DNA of 48,217 bases from Minisyncoccota bacterium (GTDB lineage: Bacteria > Patescibacteriota > Minisyncoccia > SW-4-49-11). The position numbers and the translations under genes are program-made. Of this stretch, positions 1,366 to 47,532 are shown in pieces; positions within the stretch are counted from its first letter, which is position 1, and each line of letters starts with the position of its first letter. The notes under the pieces were generated by a model, which was not told where the DNA came from, searched no databases, and saw only the letters and a program-made list of their open reading frames with translations. Location of the stretch: NCBI GenBank assembly GCA_032117235.1, contig JAULZW010000005.1, positions 97,264 through 145,480 of the forward strand, in the 5' to 3' direction.

Positions 1366-2343
1366 ATGAAGAATAAAATATTAGTCACAGGGGGAACTGG
1401 ATTTATGGGGTCATATTTTATCAAGTATTTAATTAATAAATATCCTTACATAGAGATTACTAACTTAGATTCTTTGACTTATGCTGGTAATATACATAAT
1501 TTGGATAGTCTAGTAGATAATGGACGATATAAGTTTATTAAATCAGATGTCACAGATATAAACTCAATAGACAAAGCTGTACAAGAAAATAATATAGAAT
1601 TAATTGTCAATTTTGCTGCTGAGACTAATGTTGACAATTCAATAAAGTATCCACTCAAAGTTGTAAATACTAATGTCATAGGGGTAGCTTCTATCCTAGA
1701 AGTTGTTAGAAAATATGATATAGAATTGTTACAGATTAGTACAGATGAAGTTTTTGGTACTATTGCTGAAGGAGCTTTTAATGAAGAGTCTCCGTTTTCT
1801 CCTAATAGCCCTTATTCTGCTACTAAAGCAGGTGGAGATCTTTTATGTAGAGCTTATCATGAAACTTATGGAACTAAGGTAATAGTTACACATTGTTGTA
1901 ATGTTATGGGACCTAATCAATATCCTGAAAAGCTAATTCCTCTTACAATCACTAATTTATTAGAAAATAAAAAAACACCTCTTTATGGTGATGGTTTGAA
2001 TGTAAGGGAGTGGATTTATGTAGAAGATCATTCAAGAGCCATTGAATATATTATTGAGAACGGTTCTCATGGTGAAGTATATAATATTGGAACTGGTTAT
2101 GAATTAACTAACTTAGATTTAGTGAGTAAAATATTGAATAGTTTAAATAAAAGTATTGATCAAATTGAATATGTTAATGACAGACCTGGTCATGATAGGC
2201 GCTATGCTATAGATAGTTCTAAATTACGAAATTTGGGCTGGACTCCATACTTTGATTTTGATACTGCTATTAGTAAAACTATAGACTGGTATCGTGAAAA
2301 TAAAGCTTGGTGGGAGCCGTTGAAATATAATAGTTCTAAATAA
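1366..2343 (+). CDS. rfbB: dTDP-glucose 4,6-dehydratase
   Basis: ILVTGGTGFMG, LDSLTYAGN, STDEVFG, PNSPYSATK, DRPGHDRRY motifs. Start moved to ATG 1366 (MKNKILV). Confidence 0.95.
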   Translation: MKNKILVTGGTGFMGSYFIKYLINKYPYIEITNLDSLTYAGNIHNLDSLVDNGRYKFIKSDVTDINSIDKAVQENNIELIVNFAAETNVDNSIKYPLKVVNTNVIGVASILEVVRKYDIELLQISTDEVFGTIAEGAFNEESPFSPNSPYSATKAGGDLLCRAYHETYGTKVIVTHCCNVMGPNQYPEKLIPLTITNLLENKKTPLYGDGLNVREWIYVEDHSRAIEYIIENGSHGEVYNIGTGYELTNLDLVSKILNSLNKSIDQIEYVNDRPGHDRRYAIDSSKLRNLGWTPYFDFDTAISKTIDWYRENKAWWEPLKYNSSK

Positions 2344-2355
2344 ATTATATTATAT

Positions 2356-3426
2356 ATGAAAGGACTTATTGCAGCAGGAGGTAAAGGTACTAGATTAAGA
2401 CCTATTACTACAAATCGTAATAAACACACAATCCCTTTAGCCAATCAAAGTATGATTGAGTTGGCTGTTAATAAATTAGCACAAGCTGGGATTACAGATA
2501 TTGGCATCATAGTTAATATTGGTGATATTGAATTGGAGTCAATTCTGGGAGATGGCTTTAAGTATGGGGTAAATATTACTTATATAGAGCAAACAGGTGG
2601 TGCATTGGGAGTTGCCCATGTTATTTTGATGGCTCGCGACTTTCTTAAAGAAGATGATTTTGTTTTTTATTTAGGAGATAATATTATCTTAGGGGATATC
2701 AAAGATTTTATAGATATCTTTTATAACCAAAAGTTAAATGCCCTGCTTGCTTTATCTAAGGTAAAAGATCCAGAGAGATTCGGAGTTCCTAATATAAAAA
2801 ACGAGCGTATTGTAGAAGTTATTGAAAAGCCTCAAAACCCTCCTAGTCAATATGCAGTGGCAGGAATTTATATTTATGATAAAAATATCCATAATATAGT
2901 AGAAAATTTACTACCTAGTTCCAGAGGAGAATATGAAATATCTGATGCTCATACAGAGTTAATTAAAAAGGGCTTCATTGTAGGTTACTCTGAGATTACT
3001 GGGTGGTGGAAAGATACAGGTAAACCTCAAGATTTGCTAGAAGGAAATCAATTACTATTAGCTCAGATTAAAACTTCAGACATTCAAGGAGATGTAGAAA
3101 AAAATGTAACTATTGAAGGAAATGTAATTATAGAAAAAGGAGCTCAAATTAAAGATAAGAGCTTTATAAGAGGTCCAGTAATTATTGGTCAAAACACTGT
3201 TGTTTATAATAGTTATATTGGTCCATATACTTCAATTGGAAATGAATGTAAAATTGAAAATTCAGAAATTGAGCATTCTCTTCTAATGCACAATATTACT
3301 ATTCATAGCTCAAAAAGAATAGTGGATAGTATTATTGGGAATGGAGTATTAATTACAGATAAAGAAAATACTTTTCCCAAAGGGCATAAGTTAGTAATTG
3401 GAGATAACTCACAAGTAGAATTATAA
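2356..3426 (+). CDS. rfbA: Glucose-1-phosphate thymidylyltransferase, long form with C-terminal left-handed beta-helix
   Basis: AAGGKGTRLRPIT, PSSRGEYEISD, GWWKDTG and a hexapeptide-repeat tail; follows rfbB. Confidence 0.9.
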   Translation: MKGLIAAGGKGTRLRPITTNRNKHTIPLANQSMIELAVNKLAQAGITDIGIIVNIGDIELESILGDGFKYGVNITYIEQTGGALGVAHVILMARDFLKEDDFVFYLGDNIILGDIKDFIDIFYNQKLNALLALSKVKDPERFGVPNIKNERIVEVIEKPQNPPSQYAVAGIYIYDKNIHNIVENLLPSSRGEYEISDAHTELIKKGFIVGYSEITGWWKDTGKPQDLLEGNQLLLAQIKTSDIQGDVEKNVTIEGNVIIEKGAQIKDKSFIRGPVIIGQNTVVYNSYIGPYTSIGNECKIENSEIEHSLLMHNITIHSSKRIVDSIIGNGVLITDKENTFPKGHKLVIGDNSQVEL

Positions 3427-3436
3427 ATATATTATT

Positions 3437-4300
3437 ATGAAGATTAGAAAAGCAATTATTACCGTAGCAGGGTTTGGAACTAGATTTTTACCAGCTACTA
3501 AAGCCCAACCTAAGGCAATGTTGCCATTAGTAGATAAACCAATTGTACAATATTTAGTAGAGGAAGCAGTGAAAGCAGGGATTGAGCAAATTATCTTTGT
3601 AACAGGTAAGGGTAAAAGAGCAATTGAAGATCATTTTGACTCTCATTTTGAATTAGAATACCTATTGGAGCAAAAAGGAAAGGAAGAAGTCTTAAGTCAA
3701 GTCAGAAATATAGCTGATATGGCAGAATTTTTCTTTGTAAGACAGCGCTATGCTCGAGGTAATGGAGATGCTGTACTTGCAACAAGAAGTTTTATTGGAG
3801 ATGAACCCTGTGCGGTCTTATTCGAAGATGATATTGTAGCCTCAGATATTCCAGCTATAGGTCAATTAATAGAGGTTTATAATAAATACAAAGACCCAGT
3901 AATTGCTCTTACTCGTGTTCCACATTCAGAGGTATCTAAATATGGTATTATTGAAGGAACTCAAGTTAATGATAGATTATTTGAGATTAATAAATTTGTA
4001 GAGAAACCTAAGCCAGCAGAAACTAATTCTAATTTGGCAGTAATTGGTAAGTATATAATTACTCCAGCTATCTTTGACAAATTAGAACAAATGAAAAACT
4101 CTGTAATTGGAGAGTTAGGTTTAGACCATGCTTTTATAGAAATATTGAAGACTAACCCTCTGTATGGTTATGAAATACAAGGACGACGTTATGACTGTGG
4201 AGATAAATTAGGCTATATACAAGCTGTAATTGACTTTGGATTGAAACATCCAGAAATTGGTAAGGGAGTAAGTAATCATATAAAAAATATAAAATTATAA
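3437..4300 (+). CDS. galU: UTP--glucose-1-phosphate uridylyltransferase
   Basis: KAIITVAGFGTRFLPATKAQPK, VEKP, RYDCGDKLGY. Confidence 0.93.
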   Translation: MKIRKAIITVAGFGTRFLPATKAQPKAMLPLVDKPIVQYLVEEAVKAGIEQIIFVTGKGKRAIEDHFDSHFELEYLLEQKGKEEVLSQVRNIADMAEFFFVRQRYARGNGDAVLATRSFIGDEPCAVLFEDDIVASDIPAIGQLIEVYNKYKDPVIALTRVPHSEVSKYGIIEGTQVNDRLFEINKFVEKPKPAETNSNLAVIGKYIITPAIFDKLEQMKNSVIGELGLDHAFIEILKTNPLYGYEIQGRRYDCGDKLGYIQAVIDFGLKHPEIGKGVSNHIKNIKL

Positions 4301-4428: not shown

Positions 4429-5718
4429 ATGCAAAATAGAGCCATAAGAAGAGGCTTCACTCTACTAGAGATATTGTTAGTAATAGCAACAATAGGAATA
4501 TTAGCATCTATAGTATTGGTAGCTATAAATCCCACAAGACAGATAGCACAGTTAAGGAATGCAGAGAGGAGAGTGGAGATAAATAGTATACAGCAAGCAA
4601 TAGAACAATATTTCGCAAATACAAGGAGTTATCCAACAGGGATAACAGCTGCAATGCAAAATATATGTATAAATGGAAATACAGTAAACTGTTTAAATTT
4701 AGCAACATTAGTTCCAGATTATATACCAGAAATACCAATAGATCCACAAGGTGAAGCATATACAGTAGGTATAAATACAACAAATAATAGACTAAGAATA
4801 AGTGCGGGTCAAGCAGAGTTAGGAGAAATAATAGCAATAAATTTATGTCCAACAGGATATATAGTAGTACCAGGAAATAGTATATACGGAACTAAAGACT
4901 TTTGTGTAATGAAATATGAGGCAAAAGCAGTAGCAATCAGTTCCCCAACCGTAGGGTTAACAAGTCCAAACACAGTAAGTAGTGGAGTTAATATTGATAC
5001 AATAGATAATAACACAACTGCAACCACTGCCGCCAATAATAGAACTATAGCCAGTGTAGCTAGTGGGTATCCAATAGGGAATATATCTCAGCTCACAGCA
5101 AAAAGTTACTGTACTACAGCTGGTGCTAGTTTAATCAAGAATTCAGAATGGATGACAATAGCAAGGAATATAGAAAGACAAGCTAGTAACTGGAGGAATG
5201 GCATTATAGGATCAGCGGATTCATCAGGAGGAGGACTATGGAGAGGTCATACTGATTCTATGCCACTTAAAGTTCTAGTAGCCAGTACAGATGACAGTCA
5301 AGGCTATACGGGTACAGAAAATACTAGTCCAAGTAGAGAGAGAAGAACTCATACTTTAAGCAATGGAGAAGTAATCTGGGATTTAAGTGGCAATATTTGG
5401 GAATGGACCGATGATACAATATTAAATGAAGACAGACCAAAAGAAGTGTCTTCACCAGCTTTTGCCCAAAGAGAATATACAGCTATAGATAATTATGGAA
5501 CCTTAAGCTATGATTTAATAAGCCCTAGTAATAATACATGGAATAGCTCCCATAATATGGGAAAGATATCCAGTGGAACTTTTTCCATTGAACGTACATG
5601 GGCTTTTCTACGTGGAGGTTGGACTTATGGTAATGGAGCAGGGATCTATTCTCTATTTTTAGGCAATACTACATCAGATATTTGGGGTCTGTTTGGCTTC
5701 CGTTGTGTGGTGAGATGA
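4429..5718 (+). CDS. Type IV pilin fused to a C-terminal FGE-sulfatase-like (C-type lectin fold) domain; candidate DGR target
   Basis: Prepilin motif RRG|FTLLEILLV. C-terminal half has CPTGYIVVPG, FCVMKYEAK, IWDLSGNIWEWT, FLRGG...GFRC. Confidence 0.85.
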   Translation: MQNRAIRRGFTLLEILLVIATIGILASIVLVAINPTRQIAQLRNAERRVEINSIQQAIEQYFANTRSYPTGITAAMQNICINGNTVNCLNLATLVPDYIPEIPIDPQGEAYTVGINTTNNRLRISAGQAELGEIIAINLCPTGYIVVPGNSIYGTKDFCVMKYEAKAVAISSPTVGLTSPNTVSSGVNIDTIDNNTTATTAANNRTIASVASGYPIGNISQLTAKSYCTTAGASLIKNSEWMTIARNIERQASNWRNGIIGSADSSGGGLWRGHTDSMPLKVLVASTDDSQGYTGTENTSPSRERRTHTLSNGEVIWDLSGNIWEWTDDTILNEDRPKEVSSPAFAQREYTAIDNYGTLSYDLISPSNNTWNSSHNMGKISSGTFSIERTWAFLRGGWTYGNGAGIYSLFLGNTTSDIWGLFGFRCVVR

Positions 5719-5981
5719 GGTGATTTATTTTATTATACATACTGCTATAAAAATTTATAATTATTATCCCAAAGCTCTGTCTCTTCTAGTTATAATATTA
5801 TTTTATACATAATAAAATAATATTATTTAGATCTTAAATCAAAAAACATTCTAATTTATAATATCAGTTATTTTAACTAAAATAAAAGTTGGTTTATAAG
5901 ATAATTGTACACATAAACTTGAATCTAAGCTGTGTTTATGATATAATATTTAACATTACTATTGATAAATAAGTATAATTT

Positions 5982-7250
5982 ATGAAAATTATTAGAAAAG
6001 ATTTACCTAAATCTAAGGTAGAGCTGAGTATCCAAATTGAGAAAGATAAGATGATTGTTTATATTGATAAAACTACTTCTAAACTTGCTAAGCAAATTAC
6101 TATGCCAGGTTTTCGTAAAGGTGAAGCTCCCAAAGAGTTAGTTGTAAAACAGATTCATCCAACTGATTTGCTAAATGAAACATTTGAGTATGCTATTAAT
6201 GAATCTTATAAGCAGGCAATTGAGAAAGAAAAATTATCTCCACTAGATAGTCCAGAGATTAAATTATCAGAAAAAGCATCTAAAGATAATTTGGAATATA
6301 CGGCTATTATAAGTATTATGCCAGATATAAAGTTGCCAGATTGTAAAAAATTGGCAGAAAAAATTACTAAAGAGCAAGAAAATATTTCTGATAAAGATGT
6401 TGAAGAAGCTAAAAAATATTTACAAAAATCTCGAGGAACCCAAAATATTGTAGATAGAGAGTCTAAAGCTGGAGATATAGTAAGTTTAGATTATGTTTTG
6501 ACCATAGGTAAAAAAGAGTTTGATAAATCTTATAAAATGCCAGTAGAAATCGGAGCAGGAAATTTTATTCCTGGCTTTGAAAATGAAATTATTGGTCTTA
6601 AATCTGGGGATAAAAAAGAATTTGATATTCAATTTCCAGATGAATATCATAATAAAGATTTGGCTGGGAAAAAAAGTCACTTTGCGATTTCTGTTAATGA
6701 TGTACAAGAAATTAATGTACCTGCTTGGGATGATGAATTTGCTAAAGAATTAACTAATGGAGAAAAAACTATTTCTGATCTTGAGATGAGCTTAAAAGAA
6801 GGTCTGATTGCTGAAAGAAAAAAAGAAGTTCAAACTCAATATACTCAAGCTATAGTGGATGAGATTTTAGCTAATATTAATGTGGATTTGCCAGATGTAT
6901 TGGTAATTGCAGAAAGAGACCAAATTATACAAGAAATGGAGCAGAGAGCTTTATATTCAGGGAATACTCTAGATGATGCCTTAGTTCAGTCTGGTAAGAC
7001 TAGAGATAGTTTATTGGAGGAGGCTATACCACAAGCTGAGTCTAGAGTAAAGTTAATGCTTGTTTTAAGAGCTATTGCAGCAGAACAAGGTTTCAAAGCT
7101 GATGAAAAAGAAGTTCAACACCGTATAAATCATATTCTAGAGAGATATTCTGATAAGGAAAAACAAAATATAGACATACAAAGATTGACTACAATAGTTA
7201 CTGCTGAGATAACAGATAAAATATCTCTAGATTATATTGGTAATTTGTAA
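5982..7250 (+). CDS. tig: Trigger factor
   Basis: PGFRKGEAP ribosome-binding motif; FKBP domain FIPGFE...FPDEYH..LAGK. Confidence 0.95.
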   Translation: MKIIRKDLPKSKVELSIQIEKDKMIVYIDKTTSKLAKQITMPGFRKGEAPKELVVKQIHPTDLLNETFEYAINESYKQAIEKEKLSPLDSPEIKLSEKASKDNLEYTAIISIMPDIKLPDCKKLAEKITKEQENISDKDVEEAKKYLQKSRGTQNIVDRESKAGDIVSLDYVLTIGKKEFDKSYKMPVEIGAGNFIPGFENEIIGLKSGDKKEFDIQFPDEYHNKDLAGKKSHFAISVNDVQEINVPAWDDEFAKELTNGEKTISDLEMSLKEGLIAERKKEVQTQYTQAIVDEILANINVDLPDVLVIAERDQIIQEMEQRALYSGNTLDDALVQSGKTRDSLLEEAIPQAESRVKLMLVLRAIAAEQGFKADEKEVQHRINHILERYSDKEKQNIDIQRLTTIVTAEITDKISLDYIGNL

Positions 7251-25481: not shown

Positions 25482-25847
25482 ATGTCATATAAGGTTTTAA
25501 TTGTAGAAGATGAGTCAGCTATAGCTAGAGTTTTAGAGTTGAAGCTAAAGCAAATTGGTATAGACACTACGCTAATTAATGATGGTAGTTTGGCTTTGGA
25601 TGTAGTAAATAAAGAGGACTTTGATTGTATTCTACTAGATTTGATATTGCCCGGAGCTGATGGATTTACTATATTAGAGGCTATCAGGAAAAAAAGTAAA
25701 TCAACTAAAGTAATTATTATGACTAACTTAGGTCAATATGAGGATAGGACTCGCGTTGAAAAATTAGGTATAACCGCCTATTATGTTAAATCTGAAGTTT
25801 CAATCAGTCAATTGGCTGAAGCTGTAAAACAAGTTTTAATAACATAA
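25482..25847 (+). CDS. Single-domain response regulator (receiver only)
   Basis: VLIVEDE, ILLDLILP..DG, IMTN, YYVK; 121 aa with no output domain. Confidence 0.92.
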   Translation: MSYKVLIVEDESAIARVLELKLKQIGIDTTLINDGSLALDVVNKEDFDCILLDLILPGADGFTILEAIRKKSKSTKVIIMTNLGQYEDRTRVEKLGITAYYVKSEVSISQLAEAVKQVLIT

Positions 25848-25893
25848 ATTAGTTTATGTGATATAATTAAACTAATAAAATTAAAAACATATT

Positions 25894-27624
25894 ATGCAAC
25901 CAAAAGAAATATTAGATCTGTTAGTAAATACACAATATATAACTCTAGATGATTGTAAGGTGGCACTTTCTAGTACCAATAATGATCCAGCTATTGCAAT
26001 AGATTATTTAGTACAGAATAGTATAATTACTTACGACATTATAGGTCAGGCTTTAGCAGAGAGTTGGGGTGTATCTTATTTTGATTTAAATACATTTATT
26101 CCATCCAAAGATGATGTGATGAAAATACCCGAGTCTGTGGCTAGAGAATTGCGATTAGTGTACTTTAAAGATTTATCTGATAAAATACAGATTTCATCAG
26201 ATAATCCAGTTGTATTACAGGGTAATGCTAGATTAATTATTAAAAGAGAAGAGAAAACTGGATTTATTGGTGGGAAAAAAGAAATTACGGAAGAAAAAGA
26301 TTTAGCACAAGAGCTTATTAAGCTATTTCAAAAACCAATAGAATTTGGATATTCTTTAACACAAGATATAGATAAATCTTTATTAAATTATAAAGCACCA
26401 CTTTCATCCAGATTCATATCCATAATGGATAAATTTGACACAGTAGCTCCAGAAATTGTGGAAGAGATAATAGAAGAAGCTTTAGAAGAGCGAGTCTCAG
26501 ATATTCACTTTGAACCTCAATATGATAAAAGTGTAAGAATTAGATTTAGAGTAGATGGTATGTTGCAAGAAGTAGGTACTATACCGTTTTCATATTATGA
26601 GAATATACTTAATTTAATTAAGGTTAATTCTCAATTAAGGACAGATGAACATTTCATTCCCCAAGATGGTGCCATTCGTTTTAAAAAAAATAATTTAATT
26701 ACAGATGTTCGAGTTTCAATTTTACCAACTGTATATGGAGAAAAAATTGCCCTCAGAGTGCTTATAAATACACTATCTAATATAACTTTAGACACACTGG
26801 GATTAAATGAAAAAAATATCAAAACACTAAGAAAAGCATCTCAAAAACCATTTGGTATGGTTTTAGTAACAGGTCCTACTGGATCAGGGAAATCTACAAC
26901 TCTTTATTCTATATTAAAAATAGTTAATGATGAAGGTAGGAATATAACCACTATTGAAGATCCCGTTGAGTATAAGATTGAGGGTGTCAATCATGTGCAA
27001 GTTAATAAAGAAACAGATTTATCATTTGCTCGTGGTTTGAGGTCAATTTTGCGTCAAGACCCTAATATAATTCTAGTAGGAGAAATTAGAGATGATGAAA
27101 CAGCACAGATTGCCATTAATGCAGCTTTAACAGGTCATTTACTATTTTCAACCGTTCATGCTAATGATGGACAAAGCACATTGCCAAGACTTCTCAATAT
27201 GGATATTGATCCATTTTTGTTATCTACTACATTACATTTGATTGTGGCCCAGAGATTAGTTCGCAAGATATGTCCAGCTTGTGTATATACCTATACAGTT
27301 AATAGAGTAGAATTAGAAGAAACGGTAGGAGAGTCTTTAGAAAGATTCTTCTCAGAGGATAAATTGACATTATATAGAGGTAAAGGTTGCTCAAACTGTA
27401 GCTTTACAGGATATAAAGGACGCAGTGGAATCTATCAATTAATAGAAATGTCAGAGGAATTAAGAGAGCTGGTTTTACATAAACCGACCTCTGATATAAT
27501 AGCTAAGGTAGCTCGCCAACAGGGGTCTTTATCGCTTTTTGAGGATGGAATAGAAAAAGTGAAAATAGGGATTACTACTTTAGATGAAGTTATGAGAGTT
27601 TCACAGATACCAGAAGAAATATAA
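25894..27624 (+). CDS. pilB: Type IV pilus assembly ATPase (PilB/GspE)
   Basis: SDIHFEP, RFRVDG, GPTGSGKST, TIEDPVEY, LRQDP, GEIRD, CxxC/CxxC zinc motif. Confidence 0.93.
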   Translation: MQPKEILDLLVNTQYITLDDCKVALSSTNNDPAIAIDYLVQNSIITYDIIGQALAESWGVSYFDLNTFIPSKDDVMKIPESVARELRLVYFKDLSDKIQISSDNPVVLQGNARLIIKREEKTGFIGGKKEITEEKDLAQELIKLFQKPIEFGYSLTQDIDKSLLNYKAPLSSRFISIMDKFDTVAPEIVEEIIEEALEERVSDIHFEPQYDKSVRIRFRVDGMLQEVGTIPFSYYENILNLIKVNSQLRTDEHFIPQDGAIRFKKNNLITDVRVSILPTVYGEKIALRVLINTLSNITLDTLGLNEKNIKTLRKASQKPFGMVLVTGPTGSGKSTTLYSILKIVNDEGRNITTIEDPVEYKIEGVNHVQVNKETDLSFARGLRSILRQDPNIILVGEIRDDETAQIAINAALTGHLLFSTVHANDGQSTLPRLLNMDIDPFLLSTTLHLIVAQRLVRKICPACVYTYTVNRVELEETVGESLERFFSEDKLTLYRGKGCSNCSFTGYKGRSGIYQLIEMSEELRELVLHKPTSDIIAKVARQQGSLSLFEDGIEKVKIGITTLDEVMRVSQIPEEI

Positions 27625-27633
27625 TTAAGATAT

Positions 27634-28917
27634 ATGTTTTTTAAGAAGAAAAATACATCTGTATCTAATAGCCAAGTTGATAATTTAAATCCATTAGTAA
27701 ATCAAGTGGTAAAATCAGACTATACAGCATCCAATCAAAATCTTAATTTGAATTATAATGTGGATACTAGTAATCAGTCTGTTTTTACTACAATTGAACA
27801 ACTTGATGCAAAACAACCTTTTCAAAATCAAGTCCCAGGTCGTACTAAAGTTAAGAGAGGTAGTAGTAAGGTTAATAAAGCAAAAAAAACTTTCTTAGAT
27901 AATCTATCCTTATTAGTAGGATCAGGTATGGGTGTTAATACATCTTTAAGGATATTGTATAAAAATACTCAAGATATATCTTTAAAAAAATCACTTAACT
28001 CAATGTTAAGTAGCGTAGAAAGTGGTAGTAGTTTATCACAAACAATGCATGATCATAACTTTTTACCTGACTTTTTGATTTCTTTAATTAGAATTGGTGA
28101 AGAATCAGGTAATTTAGCAGATAAAATTAAAAGAACTGTTATATCACTAGATAAAGATCAAAGACGTATAGCGCAGTTAAGGTCAGCTTTGTTTTATCCT
28201 GTGTTTGTCCTAACTTTAGTTATTGTGTTGGGCTTAGTAGTATCAACCTTCATTCTACCAAGAATAGGACAGGTTTTTTCTAATATGAATGTAAAGTTAC
28301 CAGTAATGACAAAGATATTAATTCAAATGGGAGAATTTATGTCTAAATATTGGTATATAGTTATTCCTTTAACATTAGCAATATTAATACTTTCAATGTT
28401 ATTACTATTTGTATTTCCATTAACTAAAAAATCTGGTCAATGGCTATTATTCCATCTGCCAATATTCAATGATTTAATCGTAAAAACTGAGGTTTCTAGA
28501 TTCTCCTATAATTTGGCAATGCTATTAAATTCTGGTATTCCTATAACTAAGGCACTATTATCTCTATCTAAGATACATGATTATTATATGTATAAAAACT
28601 ACACTGAATTTTTAGCTAATTATATTCAAAGTGGTAAAAGTTTTCATAATATATTTGATCTAAATAAGAAAAAAACAAATTCTATATTACCATTTACTGC
28701 TCAAGAGATTATAACAGCAGGAGAGGAGTCGGGTAAATTACCAGAAGTATTGGAGCAATTAGGAGAAAGATATGAACAGGAATCAGAACAAATTTCTAAA
28801 AATATTGCTGTGCTATTAGAACCAGCTTTATTGATTGTAGTTTGGATAGGAGTTGTATTCTTGGCTGTAGCTATTCTACTTCCAATCTATAGTTTAGTGG
28901 GTAATTTCCAAGCTTAA
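27634..28917 (+). CDS. pilC: Type IV pilus inner membrane platform protein (PilC/GspF)
   Basis: Two T2SSF repeats (GEESGNL, GEESGKL), ALFYP, LLEP, AILLPIY. Confidence 0.92.
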   Translation: MFFKKKNTSVSNSQVDNLNPLVNQVVKSDYTASNQNLNLNYNVDTSNQSVFTTIEQLDAKQPFQNQVPGRTKVKRGSSKVNKAKKTFLDNLSLLVGSGMGVNTSLRILYKNTQDISLKKSLNSMLSSVESGSSLSQTMHDHNFLPDFLISLIRIGEESGNLADKIKRTVISLDKDQRRIAQLRSALFYPVFVLTLVIVLGLVVSTFILPRIGQVFSNMNVKLPVMTKILIQMGEFMSKYWYIVIPLTLAILILSMLLLFVFPLTKKSGQWLLFHLPIFNDLIVKTEVSRFSYNLAMLLNSGIPITKALLSLSKIHDYYMYKNYTEFLANYIQSGKSFHNIFDLNKKKTNSILPFTAQEIITAGEESGKLPEVLEQLGERYEQESEQISKNIAVLLEPALLIVVWIGVVFLAVAILLPIYSLVGNFQA

Positions 28918-28925
28918 AATACTAT

Positions 28926-30122
28926 ATGAAATCTAAATACAAAGGTTTTACGTTGATAGAAATTACTTTGGTCATTGTTTTAATATCTATTCTCCTAGCT
29001 ATTACTACTCCTTTAGTATCTAGTGTAGTTGTTCGCAATGATTTGGGTTCTGCCCATGAAGCATTATACAATGCTTTATTAAGAGCGCAACAATTATCTA
29101 AAAATAATTATAAAAATTTACAATGGAGAGTATGTGTAGAAAATAATTCAAAAACATATATTATAACAGCAGGTACTTGTAATTCTACTCTTTATCCAGA
29201 AACTATCAAAATTAGTTCTAACATTGATATTAGCTCCACTCAAACCCTAGATATTGCTTTTAAACCCATTAGCGGAGAATTAGATTATATAAATGATTTA
29301 ATTCAATTAAATTTAAGCGGAAGAGGAGTTAGTAAATATATTAGAATAAATAAATCAGGAGTAATTGATAAAGAAGCTACTACAGATCCAATATCTAATA
29401 TAACTACTAATTCTATAGTAACTAATGGACTAGTTTTGCATCTTGATGCTAGTAATATAAATAGCTATCCTGGATTTAGTACTGGACAAATTTGGAATGA
29501 TTTAAGCATTAACAATAATAATGGTACACTTATTAACACACCGACATATAATACAAATGGATATTTTGATTTTGATCACACACAATCTGAAAGTGTAACA
29601 TTTTCTAATGCATCATCGTTACAATTTTTAAATAGATCCCCTTATACTTTAGAGTCTTGGGTATATCCAACCAGAAATCCTGGATTAGGTAACTATACAG
29701 GTATTTTGGATAGAGAGGACGCTTCTATGGGATATAGGAACGGATATGAATTACATTTCTCAACTAATACTAGTAATCAACCCTACTTTTCAACAAACAG
29801 ATTTAGTCTAGAAAATGGTATATTCAATCAGTCTGGTACATCTGTATTAATAGATTCTTCATCCATAAATAACACTTGGCATCATATTGTAACAACTTAT
29901 GATGGAACAAATTTATCCTTATATCGTAATGGCTCTTCTATTGGCGCACCAGTGGTTTCTACTGGAAATATTACGAATACATCTAAAGCACTTACTCTTG
30001 GTGTAAGAGGTGGTCAGTATTTTGGTGGAAGAATATCAAATACAAGAATATATAACAGAGCTCTCACAGCAGCAGAAGTTCAACAAAACTTTAATGCCAC
30101 TAAAGGTAGATTTGGATTGTAA
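28926..30122 (+). CDS. FimT/GspH-like minor pilin fused to a LamG/concanavalin-like domain
   Basis: KG|FTLIEI motif; C-terminal GLVLHLDA...WHHIVTTYDG..L.LY.NG...RIYNRALTAAEV. Confidence 0.85.
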   Translation: MKSKYKGFTLIEITLVIVLISILLAITTPLVSSVVVRNDLGSAHEALYNALLRAQQLSKNNYKNLQWRVCVENNSKTYIITAGTCNSTLYPETIKISSNIDISSTQTLDIAFKPISGELDYINDLIQLNLSGRGVSKYIRINKSGVIDKEATTDPISNITTNSIVTNGLVLHLDASNINSYPGFSTGQIWNDLSINNNNGTLINTPTYNTNGYFDFDHTQSESVTFSNASSLQFLNRSPYTLESWVYPTRNPGLGNYTGILDREDASMGYRNGYELHFSTNTSNQPYFSTNRFSLENGIFNQSGTSVLIDSSSINNTWHHIVTTYDGTNLSLYRNGSSIGAPVVSTGNITNTSKALTLGVRGGQYFGGRISNTRIYNRALTAAEVQQNFNATKGRFGL

Positions 30123-30137
30123 AGATTAAATTTTATT

Positions 30138-32039
30138 TTAAGGTGTACCAAAATAATCTCTTATATTATTTTCAACAGCAGTTTTATTACCTAATTTATT
30201 TCCATCATATATAATTAGCTCCGATATATGTCCATTTAAGAAATTCCCATCACTACCAGTTCCGATATTGAGAGGGCTATTGATTAATGAAGTTCTAATA
30301 GCTGTATATAAATTTAGAGAATTTTTATTGTCTGACCCAGTACTAGTGGCTGTATTAGATTTATTTAGATAATAAATATTAAATAGGTCTGAAGATCCAA
30401 TTATAGCATAATTGGTAAGTCTTGACATAAAGGATTGATTACTAGCAGCTCTACTAGCTACAAAAAAGGCTGTAGAATTAGTAACATTATTAAAAGCATT
30501 ACTCACTAATTGATCATTAGTACCATCAAATCTAATTACCGGCTTGTCATTCATAGTTATTATCCCAGTTGCTCCATCTACAATCTTAGGTTGAGCTCCT
30601 GTTGAGGTTTGAATAGCATTATTTCCATTTCCAGATTGGTCATACCAAGTAGATATATATCCATCTCCAGTATTGGCATCGGCAACCGTGGGCTGATAAG
30701 TTTTTGGAGTAGAAGTTAAACTAGAGCTTATATGTCTCTGACCTCCCCACACAAATATGGAATCGTCGGTAGAAGTTAGATTTACTAGCTCTAATCTTGC
30801 AGATGTGGCAGAACTAATTATAGTAAGAGTAATATTTCCTGGTTGAGGAAGAGTGGTAGGTGTAGTAGTAGCTGTAGCAGAGAGAGAAATTCTATACCAT
30901 CCATTTCCCACAGATTCTATGTCTGCCTGACTCGGAGTAACATCTCCTGAGGATGATGCTAAAGTTCCATTACTAAGATTATAGTTCTGATAAGATGTAT
31001 TCGCAGTGAAAGCTGTACCATTAGGAGCTAATTGTACAAAATTATAGCCATTATTTGCCTTTACATAATAGGAATCAGTATAAATTGTGCCATTTGTTAA
31101 AGTAGTATCTTTATTGATAGTTCTCGCAACATTTCCAACATTTAGATTTACTTTTTCAGCCGTATTAGTTCCATCAGGAGCTATAGTATTATCTGAGATA
31201 GATGTTATATTATTAAGATTCCAGCTACCAGTGGTAGTTATATCTTGGGAGTAATTAAGAAAATTCTGATAACCTACAAAATTTTGTAAAGCGACTTTAT
31301 CTAATTCTCCTTTAGAATTAAAGCTTATATCCATTTCACTTTGGTCTAAACCTCTATCTCGTCTAACTCGAATGGATGGACCATTATAGGTAGATGAGAA
31401 AGCGCTATTGTTTGTATTAAATCCAGCTAATTTCCTAAGTCCATAAGCTACTCCATTAACTCCAGTAGGATATGTATTTAGAATAGGTTCAAATGAACTA
31501 ACTTTTTTAGATGATTGTATTGTGGCTTCAAATGATTTTTCAGCTTCATATTCGAAACCACTAAATGCAGGTTTATTATATCTAAGTGTAAACTTTAATT
31601 TTACAGATTGAGATATATTATTAGTATTTTCATTATTTTGGGTATTAATTTGTTCTAATAATAGGGTCGGGGAAGGTGTGTTGACAACTAATATTCCATT
31701 CGGATTTATGTTGAAAGAAGTAGCATTATTACTATAAGACACAATAATATTATTATTAGATTGGGTTATAGTAGTATCTACGTTATCTTTTCTTAGTACT
31801 AAAGTATTATTAGGAACGGCATTTAGTTTGGGGCTAACAATAATATCAGCTTCGCTCACTAAATTTTGAATCTTGTCAATGATTGAGTTTCCAGTTTGAT
31901 TTAATTCATTATTAACTCTAAAGGAGGTAGATAATCTAGTTAATTGTGCAAAGGAGAATACAGCTATAGCTAAAGTAACTCCTCCTATAACTACATATAA
32001 TAATATTTCTAATAAGGTGAATCCCGAGTATCTTTTCAT
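30138..32039 (-). CDS. PilW/GspJ-like minor pilin fused to a concanavalin-like domain with an inserted carbohydrate-binding-like module
   Basis: SG|FTLLEILLY motif; AYGLRKL...IRVRR, WYDQSGNGN, FDGTND, GHISELIIY; insert with APDGTNTA...GNGWYRIS...VWGGQ. Confidence 0.8.
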   Translation of the reverse strand: MKRYSGFTLLEILLYVVIGGVTLAIAVFSFAQLTRLSTSFRVNNELNQTGNSIIDKIQNLVSEADIIVSPKLNAVPNNTLVLRKDNVDTTITQSNNNIIVSYSNNATSFNINPNGILVVNTPSPTLLLEQINTQNNENTNNISQSVKLKFTLRYNKPAFSGFEYEAEKSFEATIQSSKKVSSFEPILNTYPTGVNGVAYGLRKLAGFNTNNSAFSSTYNGPSIRVRRDRGLDQSEMDISFNSKGELDKVALQNFVGYQNFLNYSQDITTTGSWNLNNITSISDNTIAPDGTNTAEKVNLNVGNVARTINKDTTLTNGTIYTDSYYVKANNGYNFVQLAPNGTAFTANTSYQNYNLSNGTLASSSGDVTPSQADIESVGNGWYRISLSATATTTPTTLPQPGNITLTIISSATSARLELVNLTSTDDSIFVWGGQRHISSSLTSTPKTYQPTVADANTGDGYISTWYDQSGNGNNAIQTSTGAQPKIVDGATGIITMNDKPVIRFDGTNDQLVSNAFNNVTNSTAFFVASRAASNQSFMSRLTNYAIIGSSDLFNIYYLNKSNTATSTGSDNKNSLNLYTAIRTSLINSPLNIGTGSDGNFLNGHISELIIYDGNKLGNKTAVENNIRDYFGTP

Positions 32040-32042
32040 ATA

Positions 32043-33113
32043 TTATAGATATATATTATATTTAGAATTAAGATATGCTCTAAGTTGATTTAATTCATCT
32101 GTACTTAATTTTTTGTTATAAACTAAAATTTCAGCTATATCTCCATTTAAGAATCCAGCGCTTCCTTGGGAATTAGCGCCTACTGTAATAGGTCTAGTCG
32201 TATTGCTTATACTAATTGCTCCGGTAGCAGTGGAAGCTGTAGTATTATTAATAGCTAAACTCAATTGGGGACTACTTGGAGACCATAAGGCACTTAATAT
32301 ATTGAAATCTATAGTATTATTAGTAAATGTCAATGTATTGGTTATAATATTAAATTCATTATTTTGTAATCTCCATTCTCTTTCGTTATTGGTTGTGTCA
32401 AATTTTGCTATATATGTTTGGTTATTAGTAGTGGTAGCTGTTTTTCCTACAACAATTACACTTAGACCATTATTAGTATGAATAGAAGTAGTGGTGCTAC
32501 TAAGAAAATCATCTATTCCATCGAATCTTAATACAGGACGATTATTTATCCCATTAGTAATTAATTTTGGAGCTAGGCTTGGAATATTAGTAACTTGGGC
32601 AAAATCAATTAAATCATCAGTAGCATTTTTGACACTAAATACAAGATTGTTATTATTAACTTCAGCTCTATCTGCTTTTAGCCATAATCTGAGAGCTAAG
32701 GGATCAATTAAATAAGGGTTATTTATTTGTTGTTGTATTAAATCATCATTTGTGATTTGTTTTTGATAATCAATGATTATATTAGGGCTAATTTGTTTAA
32801 TTTTAGTTTCTAATATAGAAGATGCCACTTTAACATGAATAATTCTTTCACTATTTCCAACACCAGATATTGTGTAGACTCTACACCCATTTTCAAATGT
32901 CTCATCACCGCCATAAAACTTATAAGATCTTAATTTCGTAAAGACTTTTTCTACACAGCTAGCAGCTTTAGATTTACTAAGAACAGCATCAGCAATGTTG
33001 ATATTAGTTCTAGCAATCTGAGTACTATTACTGAGAGCGCTTACAGCTAAAGATACTCCTATAGTTGATATAATGATTGTTAATAACAGTACACTATAAC
33101 CAGACCTATACAT
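32043..33113 (-). CDS. PilX/GspK-like minor pilin fused to a LamG-like domain
   Basis: SG|YSVLL prepilin motif lacking Glu5; LRLWLKAD, P.LRFDGIDD, LNGDIAEILVYNKKLS..E. Confidence 0.8.
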   Translation of the reverse strand: MYRSGYSVLLLTIIISTIGVSLAVSALSNSTQIARTNINIADAVLSKSKAASCVEKVFTKLRSYKFYGGDETFENGCRVYTISGVGNSERIIHVKVASSILETKIKQISPNIIIDYQKQITNDDLIQQQINNPYLIDPLALRLWLKADRAEVNNNNLVFSVKNATDDLIDFAQVTNIPSLAPKLITNGINNRPVLRFDGIDDFLSSTTTSIHTNNGLSVIVVGKTATTTNNQTYIAKFDTTNNEREWRLQNNEFNIITNTLTFTNNTIDFNILSALWSPSSPQLSLAINNTTASTATGAISISNTTRPITVGANSQGSAGFLNGDIAEILVYNKKLSTDELNQLRAYLNSKYNIYL

Positions 33114-46829: not shown

Positions 46830-47333
46830 CTATCTAGTTACAGATATTGTAGCAGATAATTCAGCTCTAGGAGCACTAACAGTAATTCTACCATCTGTAG
46901 CTACTTGAGTAACAGTATATCCTGTACATACAGCACTTGCTCCATTAGGGTCAAATGGTAAGGCTGCAACACTATTTGGAACCAATTGAGAGGTTAAATC
47001 AAGAGCAGCAGTTGTACCTGCGACCACAAGAGTTGTCCCAGATGGACCACAGACAGCTGTTGCACCTGTACCAAGAGCATAAACAGTCCCATCTGCTAAA
47101 GCAGTGTTCATAGTCGTTAGATTATTCTGTGCATCTTCAATGATTTTTTGATAAATAGCATTAGATATTACATTTACATCAGATCTTCTCTGAGCATTAC
47201 GAGCTTGAGCTAATTGACGAGTTGGGTTAATAGCTACTAATACAACTGCAGCTAATATACCAATAGCGGCAATAACCAACAATATTTCTAGTAAAGTAAA
47301 CCCTTTTTTTTGTGATACGGAGATCTTATTCAT
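46830..47333 (-). CDS. Type IV pilin, probable major pilin
   Basis: [20 protein letters not shown]; short, Ala-rich, one Cys pair; stand-alone with terminator. Start at ATG 47333. Confidence 0.88.
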   Translation of the reverse strand: [167 protein letters not shown]

Positions 47334-47532
47334 ATTGAGTTTTGAATTAATTTTAATGGTAACTCTAATATTTATTATATATGGTATGTTAGTATAAGTC
47401 AATACAGATATTTCGCAAAGTTATCCACAATTTTGTTATTGAACTTAGTTCTATAAAATGGTATAATAATAACAATAAAATATTATAAATATATAGTATT
47501 TATTGTAGTTATAAAATAAATATTGATAAATA

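Follow-up and report, generated by a model that had tools for sequence, protein, structure and literature searches.

The gene described here lies on the forward strand at positions 4429-5718 of a 48,217-nucleotide stretch of DNA (hereafter the window, meaning the whole stretch that was analysed). The DNA comes from a tiny freshwater bacterium of the candidate phyla radiation (CPR), whose assembly we label G000. The open reading frame (ORF) begins with ATG, includes its stop codon and encodes a protein of 429 amino acids in which a type IV pilin-like module is joined to a C-type-lectin-fold (CLec) module related to formylglycine-generating enzymes (FGEs). Heads of this type are targets of diversity-generating retroelements (DGRs), and the gene is probably a former target of such an element.

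The ORF list, Pfam, NCBIfam and an AlphaFold2 model all describe a bimodular protein, and the parts given below are encoded on the forward strand. The N-terminus, MQNRAIRRG|FTLLEILLVIATIGILA, consists of a short basic leader with glycine at position -1, followed by phenylalanine at +1, glutamate at +5 and a hydrophobic α1 helix. From the motif G|FTLLE, prepilin cleavage is predicted to occur before F10, which would make E14 the fifth residue (+5) once the leader is removed. The class III (prepilin) leader thus predicted spans M1-G9 (4429-4455). Residues 7-30 match both the Pfam N_methyl family (23.2 bits; cut-off 21.2) and TIGR02532 (23.8 bits; cut-off 16.3). The pilin module, F10-N138 (4456-4842), has a long α1 helix and a small β-sheet. 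It is matched by the GspG family TIGR01710 (E 2e-10) with a score that falls short of the family cut-off. A profile of the protein family also aligns, across residues 5-81, with type IV pilins of solved structure and with GspG. The second module, C140-R429 (4846-5715), is the presumed ligand-binding head, and the FGE-sulfatase family PF03781 matches its residues 205-332 with 30.7 bits (cut-off 23.3).

The AlphaFold2 model was built from a 63-sequence alignment and has a mean predicted local distance difference test (pLDDT) score of 82.1. Its secondary structure comprises helices at residues 12-32 and 35-65, which make up the long α1 (12-65), and strands between residues 77 and 126. A linker at residues 129-137, with pLDDT below 50, joins this module to the globular CLec module (140-429). 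When the model was compared with the PDB by Foldseek, the top match was TaqVP (5vf4; E 3e-7), a DGR variable protein, followed by FGEs, Mtd and TvpA. An earlier note on this DNA, made from its letters, had described a prepilin N-terminus joined to an FGE/C-type-lectin domain, and this architecture is confirmed; the C-terminal sequence that it quoted is exact to the letter. The same note called the gene a major-pilin paralogue. Its pilin nature is clear, but "major" is too loose a term, as a bimodular protein of this kind is probably a minor or tip pilin in a genome with at least eight pilin-like genes.

A live retroelement in the genus and traces of AAY mutagenesis in the family

A complete DGR was found in a genome of the same genus, G003. 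Among 17 genomes of the order, the reverse transcriptase (RT) family RVT_1 was detected in two, G003 and G011. The G003 cassette (locus L002, G003:C33:7210-10492) consists, in order, of the 3′ end of a target gene, a bAvd gene, a template repeat (TR) and an RT gene. The bAvd protein has 127 amino acids (PF22296, 46.2 bits; cut-off 40) and the RT has 338 (PF00078, 70 bits). The target gene is a homologue of the window gene that is itself cut by the contig end; its product ends in FAFLRGGNWSDTPGAGVFTLGLANSPTSTFSLVGFRCVLR, and the TR, which also closes with a stop codon, translates to FAFLRGGNWNNTTNAGVFTLNLNNTPTNTNNNIGFRCVLR. The RT of G011 (L001, G011:C26:183-2700) was rejected as a DGR component, because by eye it looked like a group II intron RT that is cut short beside, or interrupted by, a gene for a transposase-like protein of 425 amino acids.

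The G003 TR differs from its adjacent variable region (VR) by 22 mismatches in 123 nucleotides, 21 of which are at TR adenines. The same TR also matches the VRs of two paralogues on other contigs (L086 on C27 and L087 on C29); adenines account for 24 of the 31 mismatches in the first and for 21 of the 29 in the second. Non-adenine mismatches number one in the cis VR and seven to eight in the remote VRs, where they cluster at the 3′ end, and the two remote VRs share a slightly altered 3′ end. At least three VRs, each on a different short contig, thus share one template. With two of these paralogues on contigs other than that of the cassette, the use of remote targets is a real mode of DGR action in this genus. 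The C27 copy belongs to a prepilin fusion. Downstream of the G003 VR, the DNA forms a strong predicted hairpin (-27.5 kcal/mol, z -7.5).

Codon alignment to the TR and VR of G003, together with the column entropies and codon fingerprints described below, defines a VR-equivalent segment in the window gene that covers about the last 38 codons (A392-R429, 5602-5715). By homology to the TR-templated segment of G003, this C-terminus is a DGR-type variable region, as the earlier note had proposed. Ten AAY codons of the G003 TR (Y being T or C) correspond to codons 399, 400, 403, 410, 412, 413, 417, 419, 420 and 421 of the window gene.

A search of a collection of 5.8 billion proteins gave 1118 matches at E ≤ 1e-3 among 8000 candidates scored. 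The best 120 of these matches are nearly all prepilin-FGE proteins with 40-66% identity, and column entropies were computed on the window protein and these 120 homologues. In the last 35 residues, high entropy (2.7-3.7 bits) is found at positions 399-403, 410, 412-413, 417 and 419-421, surrounded by nearly invariant positions (A404, G405, F407, L409, L411, P415 and the G-F-R-C of residues 423-426). The hypervariable columns of the family coincide with the ten AAY codons of the G003 TR, and these ten columns have entropies of 3.4-3.7 bits. Asparagine is the modal residue in six of them and the commonest residue overall (200/1137). Changes at the two adenines of AAY cannot yield codons for K, E, Q, M or W. 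These five residues make up 33 of 1137 residues (2.9%) at the AAY-equivalent columns versus 3807 of 28,559 (13.3%) at residues 140-398 (Fisher p 3e-33).

A second fingerprint is expressed at the level of codons. From a scan of species-representative genomes that returned 455 relatives, 80 loci were kept, which by their record titles are mostly metagenome-assembled genomes (MAGs) of Patescibacteria. The codon test used 47 tails, namely 44 filtered tails derived from these loci and the three copies of the present genome. At AAY-equivalent codons, the third base is T or C (NNY) in 388 of 458 cases (84.7%), compared with 58.0% in control columns (p 1e-30). The proportion is 29/30 in three tails from RT-flanked loci, 338/398 (84.9%) in loci without a flanking RT and 260/294 (88.4%) in the closest relatives. 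This genome's own three copies have a lower value of 21/30 (p 0.009 against the closest relatives). Because the NNY bias is kept in loci that have no RT in their flanks, and the AAY-reachable repertoire holds as well, DGR writing followed by loss of the writer appears to be the general history of this family.

Among the 80 loci, an RT homologue lies within 6 kb in ten, and eight have an Avd homologue. A scan for TR/VR pairs, in which a C-terminal match was available for 52 loci only, gave adenine-biased pairs in three of the ten RT-flanked loci, with 12 of 14 (L036), 15 of 16 (L046) and 9 of 9 (L074) mismatches at adenines. Repeats in L004, L027 and L068 have no adenine bias and were set aside as copies of VR segments in paralogous genes of the same locus. 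Prepilin motifs of the GFTIVE type begin the targets of L036, L071, L072 and L074, which together with the C27 gene of G003 makes five loci whose targets have prepilin N-termini. In L041, L046 and L049 the same head is carried by another N-terminal region.

Search for retroelement parts in the source assembly, and strain variation

The assembly of the source organism is a MAG of 845,475 bases in 17 contigs that is 97.4% complete. The earlier note had seen no RT, Avd gene or template repeat in the 48-kb window, and the same is true of the whole assembly. For the RT, PF00078 gave no matches at E ≤ 1 anywhere in the assembly, and the G003 RT used as a tblastn query gave chance matches only, the best with an E value of 0.015 over 36 amino acids. 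For Avd, the bAvd family PF22296 gave no matches in the assembly, and tblastn with the G003 protein again returned chance matches only. The template was sought by blastn-short and blastn (word size 7) with positions 5400-5718 and the tails of the three paralogues as queries against the whole genome, and no second copy was found; the best non-self match of the 3′ end of the gene is 31 nucleotides at 77% identity. A genome scan for the GFRC-coding motif yielded the three VRs and one chance match, but no TR. Windows of 40 codons rich in AAT and AAC proved to be low-complexity coding or noncoding DNA without an RGG...GFRC frame. Both genome searches that the earlier note had proposed, one for a template-like copy of the 3′ end and the other for a DGR reverse transcriptase, thus came back empty.

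The AT-rich intergenic spacer at 5719-5981 (263 bases, forward strand), which lies 5′ of a trigger-factor-like ORF (5982-7250), contains no Avd gene, TR or GC-rich hairpin, as judged from the ORF list and DNA folding. No hairpin follows the stop codon: the predicted fold of 5700-5800 has an energy of -2.7 kcal/mol (z +0.63). In the DGR of a Bordetella phage, 3′ target-recognition elements, consisting of an initiation of mutagenic homing (IMH) sequence and a downstream hairpin or cruciform, are reportedly required. The GFRC-coding DNA and a TGAGG after the stop are kept in all three paralogues of this genome, which may reflect coding constraint. The two other paralogues, a full pilin fusion of 381 amino acids at C2:27695-28837 and a gene at C7:2254-3579, are each followed downstream by housekeeping genes. 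The three VRs have no common non-adenine backbone that could be copied from one TR.

The site that corresponds to the G003 cassette was also located. In G003 the cassette lies just past a release-factor-2-like gene and an ORF of about 93 amino acids. The segment G000:C3:23061-24464 is colinear with L003:8138-10492 up to that point. Where colinearity ends, a YchF-like GTPase gene comes next and the cassette is lacking. This empty syntenic site could reflect either a gain in G003 or a loss in the present genome.

Variation among strains was examined in a 90%-identity cluster that contains four variants of the gene with 96-98% identity, carried by contigs of four sequencing runs in four studies dated 2016-2024. 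Joints that connect position 4545 to 4845 (separated by 272 letters of other sequence) and 5213 to 5341 occur in short, mismatch-rich contigs and were not counted as variants, as they were taken to come from paralogues such as the C2 copy. The four variants differ at 27 residue positions in all. The earlier note had named variation concentrated in the VR as a sign of activity, and such a concentration was not observed: three of 23 codons vary at 399-421 (T399A, S416L and I418M) versus 24 of 406 elsewhere (p=0.17), and one of the ten AAY-equivalent codons varies. Moreover, two of the runs, X3 (2016) and X4 (2023), show identical differences. Since retrohoming rewrites the VR starting at its 3′ end, these codons would have been randomised anew by an active element.

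The VR of the window also has several features of decay. Seven of its ten hypervariable codons are NNY and nine of its ten hypervariable residues are reachable from AAY. The tenth, W419 (tgg), lies outside the AAY repertoire, and a residue of this kind (W or M) is found at that column in two of 114 homologues. The four codons that the earlier note had singled out as not ending in T or C are all present, namely gga (G403), aca (T415), tgg (W419) and ctg (L421). It had also noticed that a residue seemed to be missing between RGG and W, and this is borne out by the family: a hypervariable codon is present there in 114 of 116 aligned homologues and is deleted in the window and two others. Compared with the G003 TR, the window differs at 25 of 85 non-adenine positions.

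A cluster of non-synonymous strain differences lies just 5′ of the VR. At codons 379-392 (5563-5604, forward strand), five of 14 positions vary (K379R, S381Y, F385L/P, R389L/F and A392T) versus 22 of 415 elsewhere (post hoc Fisher p=0.0009), and K379R, F385P and R389F each involve two-nucleotide changes. Across the whole gene, the X3/X4 strain has about 15 amino-acid changes and one or two synonymous ones, according to a hand count in which some differences are unlisted. DGR action would be anchored at the 3′ end, and the pattern does not fit it. It agrees with conventional selection, diversifying or relaxed, of the sort expected for a protein at the cell surface, and the binding face may be what is being diversified.

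Pilus context and alternative explanations

The genome encodes the machinery that such a pilin would need. A prepilin peptidase (PF01478) is present at C7:6503-6823, PilB/PilT-like ATPases (PF00437) are found at five places, and PilC-like platforms (PF00482) are encoded by two genes with four matched stretches. The window itself contains a PilB-like ATPase gene (25894-27624; PF00437 at C5:123715-124860) and a PilC-like platform gene (27634-28917; PF00482 at C5:125155-126147) that together occupy 25894-28917 on the forward strand, and this pair could assemble pilins of the type described. They belong to a filament cluster at 25482-33113 that consists of a CheY-like receiver (25482-25847), the ATPase, the platform, modular pilins of 398 and 633 amino acids, and a protein of 356 amino acids. 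A small pilin gene on the reverse strand at 46830-47402, located by tblastn and the ORF list, has a module 41% identical to residues 7-137 of the protein studied here. A second cluster (L084, G000:C7:1-12500) comprises a major pilin, the prepilin peptidase, two small minor pilins, a 614-aa modular pilin and, last, the C7 CLec paralogue (2254-3579, reverse strand), whose N-terminus is prepilin-like but degenerate. A repeat of about 52 nucleotides (84.6% identical) occurs just 3′ of the stop codon of this paralogue and at 3516-3567, near its start. At the start of the window, positions 1-1272 hold the 3′ part of a large ORF that extends past the window start; it encodes repeated units of about 90 amino acids rich in W, Y, T and G, and looks like a repetitive surface protein.

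By analogy with known pilins, the protein of the window is predicted to be incorporated into a filament, and it is most likely a low-abundance, tip-exposed adhesin. With a class III signal peptide and a pilin module, it would be cleaved by the prepilin peptidase and become part of a type IV filament, most likely at the tip, where the non-catalytic FGE-type C-type-lectin head would be displayed as an adhesin. The last 38 or so codons of the head would represent the kind of VR that is written when a DGR copies AAY codons from a TR and mutates them specifically at their adenines. If RT, Avd and TR have gone in this species, then the VR would have become an orphan that is inherited in fixed form and drifts slowly by ordinary mutation. 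Taken together, the data lead us to conclude that the gene is probably an orphaned, drifting former DGR target carried on a modular type IV pilin. The earlier note had offered two possibilities, a hypervariable adhesin diversified in trans or a frozen former target. The latter agrees with the results, whereas the former does not, given the lack of RT, Avd and TR in the assembly, the missing hairpin and the static VR.

Several observations weigh against this conclusion. The NNY proportion of the window VR (7/10) is indistinguishable from the background of 57-58%, so the past rewriting of this very copy, or of a direct ancestor, is something that we infer. The strains were compared as contigs rather than raw reads, a form of data in which rare VR variants within a population are invisible. 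A DGR may also reside in an unassembled or unbinned part of a 17-contig MAG. CLec-head paralogues in the congeners G006, G008 and G012 often start or end at contig ends (for example, G006:C1:21-911 and G012:C41:11-985), and CLec-head genes break assemblies, by paralogy or by population heterogeneity. Because DGR loci and their targets often lie at such breaks, the argument from absence in a MAG is weakened. Finally, the gene lies outside both pilus clusters, with nucleotide-sugar genes and the trigger-factor-like ORF as its neighbours.

The near-background NNY count would also be expected if this copy had never itself been rewritten, but arose as a duplicate of an ancient DGR target, or resembles such targets in fold alone, its tip having diverged by ordinary mutation and diversifying selection. 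The large divergence at non-adenine positions from the G003 TR, which is the only one known for the genus, is in keeping with such an origin. The inter-strain substitutions, almost all non-synonymous across the gene, cluster outside the TR-templated segment, and this clustering indicates that conventional selection acts on the head. Nevertheless, we regard this origin as unlikely, given that the NNY fingerprint persists in loci without a flanking RT and in the closest relatives, and that the AAY-reachable repertoire holds both family-wide and for nine of the ten hypervariable residues of the window. Still less probable is that the gene is a live remote target whose VR is rewritten in trans by a DGR that was missed in assembly or binning, or that resides on a mobile element which the population shares. 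The genus provides a precedent in the G003 template that serves three contigs, and homologues of the G003-type RT were detected in 74 of 201 sampled genomes of the class at E ≤ 1e-15 (a count of RTs whose TR/VR pairs were not individually checked). MAG assemblies break at DGR loci, and the conserved GFRC-coding DNA and TGAGG of the three paralogues might be read as retained target signals. However, neither RT, Avd nor TR was found in an assembly that is 97.4% complete, and the VR has no downstream hairpin, compared with a very strong one in G003. The VR is near-identical in strains from four studies, with the same differences in the 2016 and 2023 runs, and the three paralogous VRs share no non-adenine backbone on which one TR could act. 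One VR codon is deleted and W419 cannot be reached from AAY. Its own relatives are also poor in DGRs, with G003-type RT homologues in one of 17 genomes of the order and in none of the seven family members in the class sample.

It is hardly credible that the C-terminal domain is a working FGE, or a related sulfoxide-synthase-type enzyme, on a pilin-like helix anchor. The Pfam FGE-sulfatase match is above its cut-off and FGE structures are among the Foldseek matches, but the best structural match is to a DGR variable protein rather than an enzyme. FGE catalysis needs a pair of cysteines in the C-terminal part of the domain. Between C228 and C426 the window protein has no cysteine, so this pair appears to be absent and enzymatic activity is not plausible. 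The stretch that corresponds to the catalytic pair is the hypervariable one, where cysteine accounts for four of 1137 residues at the AAY-equivalent columns. Furthermore, TvpA, a DGR target of the FGE type, has no FGE activity (Wu et al. 2018, PMC5758913).

The interpretation of the gene as an orphaned former target can be extended to the genus, in a form that we consider tentative and rather doubtful. DGRs may be transient writers in these bacteria. Where one is present, as in G003, a single template would rewrite several pilin-borne lectin heads in trans. A species that has lost it, a state that might apply to 16 of the order's 17 genomes, would keep a frozen archive of DGR-written pilus-tip adhesins, whose later evolution would proceed by ordinary positive selection at a loop nearby (codons 379-392). 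In the boldest form of this proposal, the window copy may still be rewritten by a DGR that escaped assembly. A VR-like C-terminus alone is no proof of ongoing hypermutation. If the tip in the window is orphaned and fixed, then it can serve as a naturally frozen counterpart to the system that is live in a sister species.

Comparison with known systems

FGE-type CLec proteins are the largest class of DGR targets, and remote targets are known (Wu et al. 2018, PMC5758913). The head of the window protein has the same fold as the CLec1 "category b" DGR proteins discussed there, TvpA of Treponema denticola (2y3c) and TaqVP of Thermus aquaticus (5vf4). As in that class, its VR is located at the extreme C-terminus, which ends in GFRC, and the hypervariable positions of its relatives are AAY-templated. 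The use of multiple and remote targets in the congener G003 likewise resembles the Treponema case of the same paper. Unlike these proteins, the window copy has no RT, Avd, TR or hairpin and its VR is static, and the N-terminal partner of its head is a type IV pilin module. Wu et al. (2018) do not use the word "pilin" in their main text, nor are "pili" or "pilus" used in the large survey by Roux et al. (2021, PMC8144416), according to which DGR targets of CPR bacteria typically have no recognisable domains. A GspG-type pilin domain is named in one line among rare VR-holding domains in another study (PMC11661182), whose main text offers no analysis of orphaned copies and whose details are in its Table S11. 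This one line is the only mention of DGR-targeted type IV pilin fusions that was found in the literature, in which supplementary tables may list the architecture.

The closest known analogues on the pilin side are the modular pilins PilB and PilC of Streptococcus sanguinis, which carry a vWA module and a lectin module, respectively (Raynaud et al. 2021, PMC8179133). Like the window protein, they begin with a prepilin motif of the IPR012902 type and have a pilin module of small size, to which a short linker attaches a bulky module for binding. PilB and PilC are predicted to be tip-exposed adhesins, and by analogy the same role may be proposed for the window protein. In contrast to PilB and PilC, it has as its added module an FGE/CLec head such as DGR targets carry; the terms "FGE" and "sulfatase" are absent from the main text of that paper, although its Dataset S1 might list the architecture.

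CPR bacteria, or Patescibacteria, are believed to live in attachment to host cells, whose recognition is an open question. By combining the modular type IV pilin with the DGR-diversified lectin head, both of them known concepts, the family described here yields a candidate host-recognition tip. A pilus-borne tip of CLec type that is rewritten by DGRs has a counterpart in the tip adhesins of Bacteroides type V pili (bioRxiv 10.1101/2024.11.15.621889). The Bacteroides pili differ in that they are of type V, are assembled by strand exchange and belong to another phylum; their DGRs are present and many of them are active, whereas the copy in the window is orphaned.

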